Source of the DNA: a virus
Taxonomy: Duplodnaviria > Heunggongvirae > Uroviricota > Caudoviricetes
Strand: one strand, 5' to 3'
Virus record (IMG/VR): IMGVR_UViG_2585427748_000007
Location: 1-12,290 of that record
Length of the DNA: 12,290 bases
The notes below the pieces were generated by a model. That model searched no databases. It saw only the letters and a program-made list of their open reading frames with translations, and was not told the origin of the DNA. Shown here piece after piece: positions 1,656 through 12,290 of this stretch (position 1 is the stretch's first letter; the number at the start of each line of letters is the position of its first letter). The position numbers were made by a program, and so were the translations under genes.

Positions 1656-1727
1656 AGTAAAAATGTACTGAAGTCAATGACGTGCCATCACAGTTAAAAT
1701 ATGACAGACTCTATTTACGTAGAGATG

Positions 1728-2606
1728 TCAGACTGCAAGATCCAAGGGAAGATCAGAAATATCCTTTAATCTTTTACCATTAACCATCACGGAAAGCATG
1801 TCAGCTGCATCGCTGAGCCCCAGTATTTCAACTGCTGATATAAGTTCATAAAGCGCAAAATGATACACGCAATCTATATCACCAGTACCAAGAGCAATAG
1901 ACGCCAGACGACTTGGAGTAGGCTCAGCAGTAACAACCATTACATGAGGGAGATTTCCCTTACGGTTGCGAATAAGATTTAATGCCTCAGAACGAGCATT
2001 CTGGGCCCGGTCGCTTCTTATTGTCCATTTGCAGGAAATACTTGCGTGTAATATTGGTTTCCCACCATTCGAACTCCTGAGAGCTGACATGCGGGTAACA
2101 GAATCATCCACCAGTAATTCAGGACTGTTGATAACTTGATCACATTCAGGTTCTCTTTCAACAATAATATCTGGTGAAATCGTATAATCACTCCCCAGTG
2201 CAGCAGCTAGCTGAGGATTACTTTTTGCAGCACTATCCAATGCTATAAGATGGGCATATTGTTCATATTTAGCTATCTCTAATCTGTTTCTACCAGAAAC
2301 CTGATGTACATTCCATTTTCCAGGGCGTAAGTGGCTGAGTTTAAAAAAGGTTTTTTCTATAAACTCTGCGCAGATACTCTCAAACTGATTACCAGATGTT
2401 TGCCCTGCAACACGTTCACCAATCGTTTCAGCCTGCAAGAAGCGAGCAATTTCTCTTGCTATAGCTTTACTGTTTTTGTTACTGCTATCTGCGTTACTAA
2501 CAACTCCGGCAGTATTAATTGTGAGCGTATTCAGTAACAATTGGGCATGAAACTCCTTTCTGGCTTCAGCAAAACCAACTATGCTGTCAACCAAATCTCC
2601 ATTCAT
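1728..2606 (-). CDS. Type II restriction endonuclease, NgoMIV/Cfr10I/Bse634I-like (292 aa)
   Basis: Start chosen at ATG 2606..2604 (MNGDLVDS...), 13 nt after the methyltransferase stop, preceded by AAGGAAATCCAGAA. Contains ISPDIIVERE and SCKWTIRSDRAQNARSE, i.e. a PD...S-x-K...E arrangement with K-to-E spacing of 14, as I recall for the Cfr10I/NgoMIV active site. Family call is from motif memory, not a search. Confidence 0.6.
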   Translation of the reverse strand: MNGDLVDSIVGFAEARKEFHAQLLLNTLTINTAGVVSNADSSNKNSKAIAREIARFLQAETIGERVAGQTSGNQFESICAEFIEKTFFKLSHLRPGKWNVHQVSGRNRLEIAKYEQYAHLIALDSAAKSNPQLAAALGSDYTISPDIIVEREPECDQVINSPELLVDDSVTRMSALRSSNGGKPILHASISCKWTIRSDRAQNARSEALNLIRNRKGNLPHVMVVTAEPTPSRLASIALGTGDIDCVYHFALYELISAVEILGLSDAADMLSVMVNGKRLKDISDLPLDLAV

Positions 2607-2619
2607 TTCTGGATTTCCT

Positions 2620-3744
2620 TCAGGCTGCTTGACTATTCTTACTGATGTTATTCTTATACCGTCCCTGCAAAACTCCATACACATATTGTGCGATTTTTGC
2701 CGCAAATAGCGGTGGAACAGCATTCCCGATCTGCTTTGCAATCTCAGTTTTTGAACCGGTAAAAATGAAATTATCAGGAAAAGACATTAATCTCGCTGCC
2801 TCACGATGAGTTATTGGCCGATCCTCTTCCGGATGTAAATATCGCCCTTTCTCCGGTTTGAAAAACTCAGTACGAATCGTTACTGAAGGTCTGTCCCACC
2901 ACAGACGTCCAAACAAATCGGTCCCTCCAGATTTCTTTTTTAGCCAGCACGCCGGGGTTATATCAGGTCTTTTTTTCTGTAAATCGAAACGGTTACCTCC
3001 TGGTGGAACCGCTTTATATCGCTCCAGAGAAACAGGTGTGGGATTACGCCCAAAATGTAAGTTCAGCGGAGGAAGTTCATTACGAATATCAGTTCCAACA
3101 GGAGCAGGTAAGTCACCAATTGCATCACGCGTACAGACCCATTCAGGCAAAGCGACATCCTTATCAGGGGAACGATGCGTTGGTGCTGGCGGGAACGCCG
3201 GAATACTATGCACATCGAAGAGTTCTCGTTTGATACCGATTGCTATCGTTCGTTTTCTTGTCTGAGGTACTCCATAGTCAGCAGTATTCAACACCATTGG
3301 ATTAAGCAGAATAAAGCCCATGGATTTCGCTCTAAACGTAATGTCCGCAAACTCATCGCTTATCAGCAATCCGGGGACATTTTCCATGACGAACATACAA
3401 GCCCTTGAACGCTCAATGACATCCATATAAGGCTCCCACAATGCTCTTCGGTGATCACCATAACGATTCTTATTTAATAAACTGAATCCCTGACACGGGG
3501 GGCCACCTATGACCACATCAGCCTCAGGAACAGTATTGCTGGATGCCCACTCCTCAATATTTGCCTGAACTCCATGCAAACCAAAATTGGCATTGTAGGT
3601 ATTTATAGCTGCAGCATTATTATCAATAGCAAGGATACTTTCAAAGTAGTCAGACATCTCTCCATGAAGAAAACCATAAGATAATCCACCTGCCCCACAA
3701 AAGAGGTCTATCACTCTGAATTTATTTAATTCTTTCATCCGCAT
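2620..3744 (-). CDS. DNA (cytosine-5)-methyltransferase (374 aa)
   Basis: Canonical C5-MTase motifs in order: I FCGAGGLSYGF, IV GGPPCQGFS, VI FVMENVPGL, VIII GVPQTRKRTIAIG, X QIGNAVPP. ATG at 3744 with GAGG 7 nt upstream. Confidence 0.85.
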   Translation of the reverse strand: MRMKELNKFRVIDLFCGAGGLSYGFLHGEMSDYFESILAIDNNAAAINTYNANFGLHGVQANIEEWASSNTVPEADVVIGGPPCQGFSLLNKNRYGDHRRALWEPYMDVIERSRACMFVMENVPGLLISDEFADITFRAKSMGFILLNPMVLNTADYGVPQTRKRTIAIGIKRELFDVHSIPAFPPAPTHRSPDKDVALPEWVCTRDAIGDLPAPVGTDIRNELPPLNLHFGRNPTPVSLERYKAVPPGGNRFDLQKKRPDITPACWLKKKSGGTDLFGRLWWDRPSVTIRTEFFKPEKGRYLHPEEDRPITHREAARLMSFPDNFIFTGSKTEIAKQIGNAVPPLFAAKIAQYVYGVLQGRYKNNISKNSQAA

Positions 3745-3922
3745 CCATATGCCTCAGATTAATGTTGAGCGTCTTACAGGACGCGTAATGTTAACTGGGG
3801 CTTTCTCTATCTGCCTTTTGGTGTTCATGCCTGAGGCAGACAGCCTCAGGCACCCGCAGCAATTCTACTTAACTCACGTCACCTCGCCAATATGAAATCA
3901 ATCAGAAAGGTGATCCATAAAA

Positions 3923-4609
3923 TCACTCCTTCTCTTCTTTTCCGTAGTGGAGTTGGCCAATTTTGATAAGAGGGCGTCCCTGAGATTTGCGGTGTAGATT
4001 GGTATCGCGCAGAGAATACACACAGCCACAATATTCCTGCTGATAGAATTTTTCGCGCTTGCTGATTTCAATCATACGGGACGAGCCGCCCTGCTTGCGC
4101 CAGTTATAATCCCAGTACACCATACCCGGATAATGCGCAACAGCTCGCCGCCCACACTCGTTAACCTGCTGCATATTTTTCCAGCGTGAAATGCCCAGTG
4201 AACTGCTGATCACACTGAAACCATTTTCAGCAGCGTACAACGCTGTCCGCTCAAAACGCATGTCAAAACACATGGTACAACGGATCCCCCTCTCAGGCTC
4301 CCATTCCATTCCTTTGGCACGTTCAAACCAGTTGTCGGTGTCGTAATCAGCATCGATAAACGGCACGCCGTGTTGTTCAGCAAAGCGAATATTTTCATCC
4401 TTACGAATTAAATACTCTTTCTGAGGATGAATGTTCGGGTTGTAGAAAAAGATGGTGTAGTCGATTCCCGAGGCCTGAAGCGCCTCCATCACTTCACCGG
4501 AACATGGAGCACAGCAAGAGTGCAGTAGTAGTTTGTTTGCCCCGTTTGGGAGTTCCAATTTAGGCCGTTTGAAATCAGCAATAGTCATAAATATTTTTAT
4601 TGGGGTCAT
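3923..4609 (-). CDS. QueH-like (DUF208) putative epoxyqueuosine reductase-family protein (228 aa)
   Basis: N-terminal [13 protein letters not shown] plus downstream CTMC and C-terminal YCGCVYS Cys motifs, matching my recollection of the DUF208/QueH Fe-S signature. Start could be ATG 4609 or ATG 4588; neither has a strong ribosome-binding site. Confidence 0.55.
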
Positions 4610-4762
4610 GAAAATAGCACAGAGTGTAGCATCAGAGCAGGGCTATCGGGAATATATGTCTAAATCTGGTAATATCTGGTTTTGACGCAAAGCGGACAAC
4701 CACGCTGGCTCTACCCTGCGCCATGAAAATGTCAATTCACATCTGAACTAATGCTCTTTAAT

Positions 4763-9404: not shown

Positions 9405-9511
9405 TGTTCACCTCATGTGATGTCATCACGATCACTAATAGCATTGTTATTTTTAAAAGTAAATAGCATCACTATTTCAAAGAGATTAATAATCTTATTA
9501 GAATTGAAGGT
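9405..9511. promoter_or_regulatory. divergent promoter/operator region between ydaS and paaR2 (OR-like)
   Basis: Perfect palindrome GTGATG-T-CATCAC (9417-9429). Two imperfect 7-1-7 sites built on AATAGCA (9437-9451 and 9462-9476), centres 25 bp apart. Putative rightward promoter: -35 TTCAAA (9476-9481), 17-bp spacer, -10 TAGAAT (9499-9504), start about 9511, which would give a near-leaderless paaR2 mRNA. Confidence 0.45.
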
Positions 9512-10012
9512 ATGAAAAGAAAATCCCTGTCAGAGATCGACCTGCAAGCCGCCCAGAGACTGAAAGAAATCTGGACGGCGAAAAAAAATCAACTAGGGTT
9601 AACCCAAGAGCGTGCGGCAGAAATTCTGGGATTTTCGACACAGGGAGCTGTAAGCCATTATCTAAATGGTCAGACACCTTTAAATCTTGAGGCTGTTATC
9701 AAGTTCGCAGGGTTGCTGCAAGTTCCTCCCGAGTCAATCAGACCAGATATGGCCGAGTTGTTACAAATTGTAAGGATGTATCCCCAAGAATCTGGGGAGG
9801 ACAATGTTGTCACTATATCTGCAGATATGGAACAATCGGAAAACGAACTTCCGTTTAATATAGACCCCATGGAGCGGGATTTGCTCCAGACGTTCAGGGC
9901 TTTCCCCAAAGAAGATAAAGAGAAAATGCTTAAGGAAATGAAGGAGAAAAAAGAATCAATTGAAGAAATCGTTGCGCGATGGCTAGCTGCGCAAAAGGGT
10001 CGTCGCGCCTAA
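9512..10012 (+). CDS. paaR2: PaaR2-like XRE-family HTH regulator (CI-like position), 166 aa
   Basis: HTH-like segment LTQERAAEILGFSTQGAVSHYLNG. First gene of a three-gene operon with a 63-aa antitoxin and a ParE toxin, matching the paaR2-paaA2-parE2 organisation reported for E. coli O157 prophages. The GAAGG upstream is only 1 nt from the ATG. Confidence 0.65.
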   Translation: MKRKSLSEIDLQAAQRLKEIWTAKKNQLGLTQERAAEILGFSTQGAVSHYLNGQTPLNLEAVIKFAGLLQVPPESIRPDMAELLQIVRMYPQESGEDNVVTISADMEQSENELPFNIDPMERDLLQTFRAFPKEDKEKMLKEMKEKKESIEEIVARWLAAQKGRRA

Positions 10013-10029
10013 TCTGAGGAGGTAAAAAC

Positions 10030-10221
10030 ATGAGTACAGCCCTTTCCCCGATAATTTCTGAATTTGAAACAGTCGAACAAGAAAACAGCTATAACGAATG
10101 GTTGCGAACCAAAGTGGCAGCAAGCCTCTCAGATCCCCGTCCTGCAATTCCACATGACGAAGTAATGGCTGAAATGGAAAACCTTATTGCTCAATTAGCT
10201 GCAACGAACAGGAGTGAGTAA
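10030..10221 (+). CDS. paaA2: PaaA2-like antitoxin (63 aa)
   Basis: Strong GAGGAGG 7 nt upstream. Small acidic protein. Its TAA stop overlaps the toxin ATG in TAATG. Confidence 0.65.
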   Translation: MSTALSPIISEFETVEQENSYNEWLRTKVAASLSDPRPAIPHDEVMAEMENLIAQLAATNRSE

Positions 10222-10511
10222 TGCTGCCCATTTTATGGCTACCTTCTGCACGTGATGATTTACGTCAGATCGTAGCCTATATTGCTAAGGAAAACCCTCC
10301 CGCTGCACGTAGACTAAAAATACGCATTGAAACATCAGTTTTGTCACTTACTGAACACCCTTATCTGTACCCACCGAGCGAAAGAGTTCCAAGTCTTCGT
10401 GAGATAGTGACTCATCCTAACTACATAATACTTTACCGAGTAACAGCATCTAACATCGAGATCGTAAATGTAGTTCACTCACGAAGACAGTATCCAAACA
10501 AAACCTGTTAA
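10221..10511 (+). CDS. parE2: ParE/RelE-superfamily toxin (ParE2-like), 96 aa
   Basis: Typical ParE size, start translationally coupled to the antitoxin stop, followed by a strong terminator. N-terminus MLPILWLPSARDDLRQIVAYIAKENPPAARRL is ParE-like. Confidence 0.7.
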   Translation: MLPILWLPSARDDLRQIVAYIAKENPPAARRLKIRIETSVLSLTEHPYLYPPSERVPSLREIVTHPNYIILYRVTASNIEIVNVVHSRRQYPNKTC

Positions 10512-10525
10512 TCCTTCCTGTCAAC

Positions 10526-10549
10526 AACCACCTTCGGGTGGTTTTTTTC
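10526..10549 (+). terminator. rho-independent terminator of the paaR2-paaA2-parE2 operon
   Basis: Stem AACCACC, loop TTCG, stem GGTGGTT, then TTTTTT (10544-10549), 15 nt after the parE2 stop. Confidence 0.7.
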
Positions 10550-10559
10550 TTGCCACGAT

Positions 10560-10598
10560 AATAGCACTGCTATTTACATAATTAAATAGTAGTGGTAT
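10560..10598. promoter_or_regulatory. OL-like operator pair upstream of the ydfA-dicB operon
   Basis: Perfect 7-1-7 palindrome AATAGCA-C-TGCTATT (10560-10574) and imperfect AATAGTA-G-TGGTATT (10584-10598), centres 24 bp apart. Same half-site as the sites at 9437-9476. Confidence 0.4.
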
Positions 10599-10780
10599 TG
10601 TTCATTCATCAACCCACCCCGCCCCACAGAACGCCAGGCAATACTTCGAGTTACCCGGCAGTGGTCAGGGGTTAAGTAGCCAGCCCGAGGCGTATGAACA
10701 TGACGGCGGGAACACTTTATATAACAGCGCAGCAGTTTTTTAGTTCCGCTACCCCGGCGTTAAGGGGAAATGAGGTCAGC

Positions 10781-10936
10781 ATGGATACTATCGATCTTGG
10801 CAACAATGAATCTCTGGTGTACGGCGTGTTTCCCAACCAGGACGGCACATTCACCGCGATGACGTATACCAAAAGCAAAACGTTTAAAACCGAAAATGGT
10901 GCCCGTCGCTGGCTGGAAAGAAACTCAGGTGAGTGA
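10781..10936 (+). CDS. ydfA: YdfA-like small protein (51 aa)
   Basis: ATG 10781 with GAGGT upstream (MDTIDLGNNESLVYGVFPNQDG...). First gene of the ydfA-ydfB-ydfC-dicF-dicB arrangement known from Qin. The ORF-track N-terminal extension from 10694 is rejected. Confidence 0.7.
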   Translation: MDTIDLGNNESLVYGVFPNQDGTFTAMTYTKSKTFKTENGARRWLERNSGE

Positions 10937-10937
10937 T

Positions 10938-11066
10938 ATGGATTTCGACACAATCATGGAAAAGGCTTACGAAGAATACTTCGAAGGCCTTGCCGAAGGC
11001 GAAGAAGCTCTCAGCTTCAGTGAGTTTAAACAGGCGCTTTCCAGCTCGGCAAAATCTAACGGCTGA
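10938..11066 (+). CDS. ydfB: YdfB-like small protein (42 aa)
   Basis: Not in the ORF track (under 60 aa). ATG 10938 is 1 nt after the ydfA TGA. Translation MDFDTIMEKAYEEYFEGLAEGEEALSFSEFKQALSSSAKSNG. Confidence 0.65.
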   Translation: MDFDTIMEKAYEEYFEGLAEGEEALSFSEFKQALSSSAKSNG

Positions 11067-11095
11067 TAAGCGAAACAGCACCGCGAGGAATCAGT

Positions 11096-11314
11096 ATGCA
11101 GAAACGAGAACCCGTCATCATCGCGCCAGACTATACCGATGATGAACTTTATGAGTGGATGCACCAGAAAATTAATGCAGCGCAGGATCTGAAATGGGCC
11201 AATGAAGCCAGGGCTAAGCAGGCTGAAAATCTGTCCGCTCTGGAGCAGGATATCACTAATCTGGAAAAAGCAGCGGCATTAAGCATTGCCAGAATGATTA
11301 CATACCCGCGTTAA
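11096..11314 (+). CDS. ydfC: YdfC-like protein (72 aa)
   Basis: ATG 11096 with GAGGAA upstream (MQKREPVIIAPDYTDDELYEWMHQKINAAQ...). Size and position match ydfC of the dicB operon. Confidence 0.7.
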   Translation: MQKREPVIIAPDYTDDELYEWMHQKINAAQDLKWANEARAKQAENLSALEQDITNLEKAAALSIARMITYPR

Positions 11315-11336
11315 TAGCTAACCAACGAGGCTAATA

Positions 11337-11711
11337 ATGGAATTTAAAGATTTACCAATGCAATTCCAGGAAATGGCAGCGAATATAGTTCGTTCCCAAC
11401 TGGCGACTCTTGACCTGAGTACCGTAGAAAAAGAAACCATCGACAATATATCCGGTAACGTACGCCGAGCCTTTATCGGGCTGTACGAAGAGAAGCAGCT
11501 CTCTGATAACCAGGATTTACATGAAAAATACTTTCTGGAATTAATGGACATCATTAATAAAGGATTTGGCTTGTTAATGAAAAAGAAAGGGATTCGAATA
11601 GCTCCCCTTGAAAATCATTTTACAGCAAGCAGTATTAATTCCTGTGATTTAAAGCATCACACATCCGATGGGAAAGTTGAATCAAACAACAAAATATCGA
11701 TTAATCATTAA
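11337..11711 (+). CDS. hypothetical protein (124 aa), AT-rich, inserted between ydfC and dicF
   Basis: ATG 11337 with GAGG 7 nt upstream. Noticeably more AT-rich than its neighbours. No recognisable motifs, acidic, no obvious hydrophobic segments. Confidence 0.5.
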   Translation: MEFKDLPMQFQEMAANIVRSQLATLDLSTVEKETIDNISGNVRRAFIGLYEEKQLSDNQDLHEKYFLELMDIINKGFGLLMKKKGIRIAPLENHFTASSINSCDLKHHTSDGKVESNNKISINH

Positions 11712-12016
11712 TTTATTCACAGGTGAGGTAGAGTGCGTGCGCCGGACACGGATAAGAATCCGGCACTGACAGTTTACTGAAAAGGATATATCCCTGAAAA
11801 GTCAGGGCATAACACGAAAGCGCCCGGAGAAGTTAGTCTCTCTGTATAGGTCGTCGTTAAATTTAATTCGATCGTGCGCTTCCGGTTGTGGCAATCCGCG
11901 AAATGGCGCGGCGGTAAGTATGGCGGGGGTATTTCTTCCCCCCCCGAGGACACCGGGTTGTCAGGTTGACCATACGCTTAAGTGACAACCCCGCTGCAAC
12001 GCCCTCTGTTATCAAT

Positions 12017-12075
12017 TTTCTGGTGACGTTTGGCGGTATCAGTTTTACTCCGTGACTGCTCTGCCGCCCTTTTTA
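12017..12075 (+). ncRNA. dicF: DicF small RNA (ftsZ-targeting sRNA), approximate ends
   Basis: Sequence TTTCTGGTGACGTTTGGCGGTATCAGTTTTACTCCGTGACTGCTCTGCCGCCCTTTTT matches the DicF sequence as I recall it, ending in a GC-rich stem and T-run, and it sits just upstream of dicB. Exact 5' and 3' ends are not determined here. Confidence 0.65.
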
Positions 12076-12243
12076 AAGTGAATTTTGTGATGTGGTGAAT
12101 GCGGCTGAGCGCACGCGGAACAGTTAAAACCAAAAACAGTGTTATGGGTGGATTCTCTGTATCCGGCGTTAATTGTTAACTGGTTAACGTCACCTGGAGG
12201 CACCAGGCACCGCATCACAAAATTCATTGTTGAGGACGCGATA

Positions 12244-12290
12244 ATGGAAACGTTATTACCAAACGTTAATACGTCTGAAGGTTGTTTTGA
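12244..12290 (+). CDS. dicB: DicB cell-division inhibitor, N-terminal fragment (runs off window)
   Basis: ATG 12244 with GAGGA 7 nt upstream. METLLPNVNTSEGCF matches the DicB N-terminus as recalled (K-12 has K at position 2). Confidence 0.7.
   Translation, partial: METLLPNVNTSEGCF

Follow-up and report, generated by a model that had tools for sequence, protein, structure and literature searches.

The window, by which we mean the whole 12,290-nt stretch of Caudoviricetes DNA that was analysed, carries an open reading frame of 124 codons near its right end, designated ORF124. On the plus strand, the order of features was the PaaR2-like repressor, PaaA2, ParE, a terminator, a promoter-like site, ydfA, ydfB, ydfC, ORF124, the DicF leader, DicF and dicB. 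They were located as follows.

9437-9484: operator-like AATAGCAnTGnTATT repeats adjoining the repressor gene
9512-10012, plus strand: PaaR2-like HTH repressor
10030-10221, plus strand: PaaA2
10221-10511, plus strand: ParE toxin
10526-10543, plus strand: strong terminator
10560-10599: operator-like AATAGCAnTGnTATT repeats overlapping the putative early-left promoter
10573-10601, plus strand: putative early-left promoter, TTTACA-17-TATTGT (promoter scan)
10781-10936, plus strand: ydfA (RefSeq annotation of the identical region; DUF1391 match)
10938-11066, plus strand: ydfB (RefSeq annotation of the identical region)
11096-11314, plus strand: ydfC (RefSeq annotation; 98-100% identical to K-12)
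11327-11330, plus strand: Shine-Dalgarno sequence GAGG, read in the sequence, with a 6-nt spacer to the ATG at 11337
11337-11711, plus strand: ORF124 coding sequence, 124 codons in the ORF list, with a product of 14.2 kDa and pI 5.9
11712-12017, plus strand: DicF leader, an untranslated portion of the polycistronic RNA (alignment with K-12)
12018-12069, plus strand: DicF small RNA (Rfam RF00039, 76.7 bits, E = 7e-16)
12244-12290, plus strand: 5' end of dicB, truncated by the end of the window (sequence and RefSeq annotation of the identical locus)

The stretch from the repressor gene through dicB was identical to that of a lambdoid prophage beside yccA in E. coli JKHS016, and it was also 100% identical in two IMG/VR prophage contigs. 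In the full JKHS016 prophage, dicB is followed by a DUF1482 gene, a RecE-like exonuclease, xis and int.

Compared with the RefSeq entry for the matching prophage, the left part of the window was shifted by 125 bp and not fully collinear. In that prophage, RefSeq annotates an NgoMIV-family type II restriction endonuclease and a DNA cytosine methyltransferase at about 1700-3744 of the window (L001 2517-4527). The pair lies in the nin/Q-proximal region and is followed by QueH and an IS5 transposase. An Rfam match to the sok antitoxin RNA, just over threshold (61 versus 59 bits), was found at 3675-3855 (minus), between the C5 DNA methyltransferase gene (2620-3744, minus) and queH (3923-4609, minus). 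The ORF list contained no intact hok-like ORF of at least 25 aa around this match, which may be a hok/sok remnant.

The PaaR2-like repressor/PaaA2/ParE module (9512-10511) occupied the cI/dicA position, with AATAGCAnTGnTATT repeats on both sides corresponding to OR and to a putative OL/PL. The immunity region of CP-933P in O157:H7 has the same layout as this PaaR2-type region (PMC8630535). In CP-933P, PaaR2 is the CI analogue, and a second promoter, PL933P, is repressed about 100-fold by PaaR2 (PMC8630535). In K-12, one transcript starting at dicBp covers the stretch from ydfA to dicF, which has no internal promoter, and dicBp becomes active spontaneously in a subpopulation of the cells (PMC10448788). 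The ydfC-dicF stretch of K-12 has been described as a long untranslated region (PMC5069750).

The promoter scan detected no usable promoter for ORF124; the only promoter-like match, at 11311-11338, overlapped the start codon. There was also no plus-strand terminator between 11096 and 12017. The lack of a promoter and terminator of its own suggested that ORF124 is an internal gene of a repressor-controlled early-left (PL, 'dicBF') operon, with the repressor control read by analogy from the homologous operons. It would be translated from a polycistronic ydfA-ydfB-ydfC-ORF124-dicF-dicB transcript. Since this operon lies behind a PaaR2-type repressor, the ORF124 product should be made only in the derepressed prophage, either on induction or on spontaneous derepression in a subpopulation of cells.

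An Rfam search of 10500-12290 at E ≤ 1 returned DicF, a sub-threshold match to STnc100 and noise, and no RNA element inside ORF124. The STnc100 sRNA match lay in the dicF-dicB intergenic region (12081-12221, plus) and scored 38.4 bits against a gathering threshold of 47 (E = 2e-6).

The ATG of ORF124 lies 22 nt 3' of the ydfC stop codon, which ends at 11314. The spacing of GAGG, 6 nt and ATG was kept in loci where ydfA, not ydfC, lies upstream, and the upstream DNA is unrelated. This bore out the initial annotation, which had called the ORF well initiated on the strength of the GAGG and the ATG. Its statement that the ORF is more AT-rich than its neighbours was likewise correct: the GC content of ORF124 was 37.3%, compared with 47-48% for ydfA, ydfB and ydfC and 51.6% for the DicF leader (47-52% for the neighbours together), and 48.8% for the whole window. 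The interval that it had put at about 700 bp, from the ydfC stop at 11314 to the DicF start at 12018, measured 703 bp. It had also stated that dicF follows ydfC shortly in Qin. This was only roughly right, as the gap in K-12 Qin is 340 bp.

To assess the coding status, homologous loci were collected. The IMG/VR scan gave 80 close loci, and the genome scan added two from E. albertii. The scan loci and the chromosomal copy of JKHS016, wherever a full-length homologue could be extracted, made up a set of 81 loci. The initial annotation had proposed conservation across prophages as a check, and conservation was found: the 375-nt frame was uninterrupted in 81 of the 81 related loci, which comprised 31 distinct nucleotide sequences, and the pooled Nei-Gojobori dN/dS in the annotated frame was 0.18.

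Four of the five other frames gave dN/dS values of 0.9-2.7. The remaining one, the antisense frame that shares the wobble positions, gave 0.26, which is the expected mirror artefact. Variable sites at codon positions 1, 2 and 3 numbered 29, 17 and 48, respectively. The dN/dS was low throughout the gene (0.15 in the N-terminal part, 0.25 in the middle and 0.21 in the tail); for comparison, ydfC in the same loci gave 0.50. ORF124 is therefore a real, conserved protein-coding gene under purifying selection. A 78-aa ORF on the opposite strand that overlaps it (11318-11554, minus) was rejected as spurious, being broken by a stop codon in 18 of the 27 unique sequences.

Pairwise alignment with the Qin prophage of K-12 showed a clean indel, which corresponded almost exactly to ORF124. 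The block that differed from K-12 spanned 11313-11945 and consisted of ORF124 and the diverged 5' half of the DicF leader. The DNA flanking this block was 98-100% identical to K-12 on both sides. Within the leader, the segment 11696-11944 was 71-90% identical to K-12, and the sequence beyond it, including DicF, was 98-100% identical.

A differing block between near-identical flanks is the pattern of allele exchange. The block of about 630 bp thus looks like the result of homologous recombination rather than of simple insertion, and the diverged 5' leader allele (to about 11945), as judged from the alignment, travels with ORF124. The event could be either an insertion in the lineage of the window or a loss in K-12; the short K-12 junction weakly resembled both ends of ORF124, which was not decisive between the two. 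The RNase III site that yields the 190-nt DicF species in K-12 would map at about 11881, inside the diverged leader (11712-11945).

The distribution was counted over 5426 complete E. coli genomes. ORF124 DNA gave a match of any length in 881 of them and a match over at least 80% of its length in 702. The N-terminal 159 nt were found in 1358. DicF was present in 4068 genomes (7885 places), and the K-12-type 'empty' junction between ydfC and the leader (at least 80% of the query) in about 2395, or roughly half of the DicF-bearing ones. Among 185,579 species-representative genomes scanned, a homologue turned up at two E. albertii loci and in no other species.

Not all loci were arranged as in the window. 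In 55 of the 81 loci, ORF124 directly followed ydfA (offset -164), and ydfB and ydfC were absent; in the rest it followed ydfC. This indicated that ydfB-ydfC (10938-11314) is an optional cassette, as much as ORF124 is. In nearly all loci, ORF124 lay immediately upstream of the DicF leader. Family variants of 106, 109, 133 and 135 aa occupied the same slot in other loci.

Other sequences were also seen at this site. In L081-L084, the ORF124 homologue was separated from the DicF leader by an extra stretch of about 766 bp (about 3376-4141), which contained an opposite-strand ORF of 148 aa with two hydrophobic helices (for example L081 3454-3900, minus). This ORF had no Pfam match and gave a faint PADLOC hint of an RT-associated SLATT (E = 0.025). 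Possibly it is a moron of the defence type that has entered this slot. A 77-aa opposite-strand CDS (4386-4619, minus) overlapped the end of the 135-aa member in phages PPompW and Evi (L003 and L005); no family match was found for it.

The gene was also found apart from its usual neighbours. In L085 (3001-3750), dicB began about 330 bp after the ORF124 homologue, and the conserved leader and DicF were both missing, which showed that ORF124 is not strictly coupled to DicF. Stx2a-converting phages carried a 147-aa relative in the early-left region, with ydfC, DicF and DicB not nearby. The N-terminal module is thus not confined to the dicBF operon.

The operon is a string of independently assorting small cassettes, and the slot between ydfA or ydfC and dicF behaves as an accessory hot spot. 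Many Escherichia prophages carry ORF124 as an optional cassette of their early-left operon, an instance of ordinary lambdoid mosaicism. The initial annotation had described it as inserted into the dicB operon between ydfC and dicF. It is indeed a discrete cassette that K-12 Qin lacks, but with 881 of 5426 genomes carrying it, it is no oddity; and the placement after ydfC held for the window but not for the 55 loci in which ORF124 follows ydfA.

The ORF124 protein was divided into three parts.

11337-11495, plus strand: N-terminal module, aa 1-53, acidic (pI 4.65), with helices at 8-23 and 32-55 and dN/dS 0.15
11496-11606, plus strand: linker and third amphipathic helix, aa 54-90, the helix at about 61-83 followed by KKKGIRI; variant-specific
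11607-11708, plus strand: C-terminal tail, aa 91-124, with the last residues KISINH; predicted to be disordered (pLDDT <50)

An AlphaFold2 model built from 82 family sequences (pTM 0.43) showed a helical hairpin at residues 1-55 (pLDDT 82-88) and a third helix at 61-83 (pLDDT 59-68). A shallower alignment gave the same topology. The third helix and its packing were predicted with moderate confidence only. No membrane segment and no N-terminal hydrophobic signal were detected (maximum Kyte-Doolittle value 0.53 in a 19-residue window; GRAVY -0.46), which suggested that the product is a small soluble cytoplasmic protein.

The full length of the protein matched PHROG 6937 (residues 1-124 on profile positions 1-124 of 124, E = 9.7e-79), a family of unknown function. 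PHROGs 1363, 2151, 9419 and 33007, on the other hand, matched only residues 1-52 to 1-63 (E from 4e-26 to 6e-3). The N-terminal family could be written as 'MEFKDLP...NVRxAFxGLY', and residues M1, K4, L6, A14, L22, K32, R43 and F46 were invariant in two alignments. Relatives of 100-208 aa shared the hairpin at 38-87% identity and then continued into unrelated C-terminal sequence. In those of 122, 133, 135, 147 and 201-208 aa, the segment corresponding to aa 54-90 was replaced by unrelated sequence. Some of the C-terminal segments of relatives were found in other PHROGs behind different N-termini.

The hairpin also occurred alone, in stand-alone proteins of 52-64 aa. One of these, the 52-aa protein of phage phi191, was the sole structural match to the hairpin (TM 0.84 on target). 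An exhaustive phmmer search of 1.84 billion representatives returned 38 clusters, all of them fragments or variants of the ORF124 family, and a profile of the N-terminal module matched hypothetical proteins of E. coli and Salmonella only. As far as these searches show, the hairpin marks out a small family that is confined to Escherichia and Salmonella and in which C-terminal parts are swapped between members. The C-terminal replacement could reflect mosaic recombination breakpoints, and not selection for new specificities.

The tail showed a mixed picture. An ending of the form ...ISINH or ...IKISF recurred across otherwise different variants, and the tail is constrained (dN/dS 0.21) although it is predicted to be disordered. 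It was missing from the 106- and 109-aa variants, and for this reason it may be dispensable. The C-terminal Lon tag of SulA is ...KIHSNLYH (...LKIHSNLYH), of which we take the ORF124 tail, ...NNKISINH, to be reminiscent. The ...KISINH tail might be a protease degron that keeps the ORF124 protein short-lived.

With ORF124 and 10-19 diverse relatives as queries, Pfam, NCBIfam and PADLOC yielded no match above noise, nor any weak match common to several members. PADLOC-DB 2.0 gave no match to ORF124 at E ≤ 0.1, and only noise-level matches to seven relatives and neighbours. The sequence-profile search of the PDB gave nothing below E = 0.07. No fold match gave a function, all related PHROGs were of unknown function, and the database names were all 'hypothetical protein'. 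The statement in the initial annotation that there were no recognisable motifs agreed with the empty Pfam, NCBIfam and PADLOC scans; it did not anticipate the full-length match to PHROG 6937. The homology search and structure prediction that it proposed as checks yielded this match and the helical hairpin, neither of which gives a function.

At the identical locus, RefSeq lists WP_032178987.1 as 'hypothetical protein'. ORF124 did not differ in sequence from PHROG 6937 and WP_032178987.1, which carry no functional annotation. The gene is thus already catalogued, and its function is uncharacterised. No mention of it was found in the literature on ydfC, dicF, dicB and dicBF.

Two candidate functions were rejected. 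A DNA-mimic anti-restriction protein of the Ocr or ArdA type did not fit the pI of 5.9, the net charge of about -3.5 and the lack of a Pfam match. An N-like antiterminator did not fit the lack of an arginine-rich motif, as judged by sequence inspection only.

ORF124 is clearly a functional accessory gene. We interpreted it, with a probability of about 0.4, as an accessory PL-operon gene for a protein-binding factor in host takeover or counter-defence. The mechanistic half of this reading we infer from the anatomy of the protein and its context: the product would act by binding another protein, with the conserved hairpin as the scaffold or docking module that all members share, and the C-terminal part, which is exchangeable, as the determinant of target specificity. 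Its role would fall in the lytic programme, like those of the PL-operon proteins Kil, DicB, Gam, Ral and CIII. Host manipulation, which the initial annotation had raised, is possible. Its other suggestion, superinfection exclusion, was disfavoured in the classical form, because the protein is predicted to be soluble, with no membrane segment, the gene has no promoter of its own, and the operon is probably shut off by the repressor (PMC10448788, PMC8630535).

A benefit to the lysogen is still conceivable in another form, in which expression at a low level or in a subpopulation blocks other phages by exclusion or abortive defence, as with DicB. DicB, encoded in this operon too, is reported to inhibit inner-membrane receptor proteins and so to shield E. 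coli from phage (PMC6832061); this effect and the spontaneous firing of dicBp in a subpopulation (PMC10448788) keep such a role alive. The slot also accepts other accessory ORFs, such as the opposite-strand ORF with two hydrophobic helices and the SLATT hint (E = 0.025). We nevertheless considered it rather unlikely, since ORF124 has neither membrane segment nor signal peptide, has no promoter of its own in an operon presumed to be under repressor control, and gave no PADLOC match, either itself or in the seven relatives and neighbours. A growth or cell-division inhibitor analogous to Kil, or a modulator of DicF or DicB toxicity, would suit the position of ORF124, which directly precedes the DicF leader at almost every locus, and in phage Evi a family member lies just upstream of a Kil gene. 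Small helical PL proteins often target division proteins, Kil and DicB being the established examples. Against this, ORF124 resembled neither DicB nor Kil nor any other family in the Pfam, PHROG and PDB searches; the operon of K-12, which lacks ORF124, inhibits division all the same; and relatives occur in Stx2a phages without DicF and DicB and in L085 without DicF. This role appeared improbable.

The remaining alternatives assign no importance to the protein. ORF124 ends exactly where the conserved DicF leader begins and travels with a distinct 5' leader allele, as might be expected if its translation acted in cis, by preventing premature Rho-dependent termination or by altering processing upstream of DicF. 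Such a role is very unlikely in view of the dN/dS of 0.15-0.25 in all three parts, which indicates selection on the amino acid sequence, and of the N-terminal module that is kept at 40-50% identity in very different DNA contexts. That the ORF is decaying or spurious and has no function might be argued from the truncated and read-through variants in the databases (P0066, P0074 and P0075) and from the empty K-12-type junction in about half of the DicF-bearing E. coli genomes. The intact frame in 81 of 81 loci under purifying selection, the Shine-Dalgarno sequence conserved in two upstream contexts and the wide distribution of the gene contradict this and make it hardly credible.

The reading as a protein-binding PL-operon factor may also be carried further. 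The family would then be a polymorphic 'adaptor plus warhead' set, in which the hairpin docks on a hub and the swapped C-termini retarget it, with the slot as a counter-defence hot spot. The conserved hub could belong to the host or be a partner encoded by the phage, YdfA for example, and the swappable C-terminal parts could direct it to different host proteins of defence or physiology. We regard this extension as doubtful.

Work on the dicBF operon has been done almost entirely in K-12, which lacks ORF124. About one-sixth of the complete E. coli genomes, pathogenic lineages included, carry ORF124, and about one-quarter carry a gene with the same N-terminal module. If ORF124 targets a host or defence function, the picture of the operon gained from K-12 is incomplete for natural isolates. 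With its modular build, the family would also offer a compact, experimentally tractable model of target switching by small phage proteins. If there is no phenotype, on the other hand, ORF124 is one more uncharacterised phage accessory gene. Its existence would not surprise a specialist, as the mosaicism is typical of lambdoid phages.

Among known systems, SieB, the Sie/Imm types and Cor are membrane proteins or lipoproteins expressed from the lysogen. Like ORF124, they are accessory prophage genes in or near the early-left region; ORF124 differs in having a product predicted to be soluble and in lying in a presumably repressed operon. A moron, as reportedly defined by Juhala et al., is an additional gene with a promoter of its own on one side and a terminator of its own on the other. 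ORF124 resembles morons in being optional and more AT-rich than its neighbours and in having clean presence/absence boundaries, but it lacks both a promoter and a terminator of its own, and it is co-oriented and translationally spaced as an ordinary operon gene. A classical moron was rejected on this basis.

The closest likeness was to the host-directed proteins of the early-left region. DicB and the lambda proteins Kil, Gam, Ral and CIII are, like ORF124, small, non-essential, patchy in occurrence and encoded in a repressor-controlled PL transcript, and ORF124 is placed beside the division inhibitors DicF and DicB. None of the five has detectable similarity to ORF124 in sequence or fold. Unlike ORF124, with its shared hairpin and exchangeable C-terminal part, none of them is known to have a two-part modular architecture.
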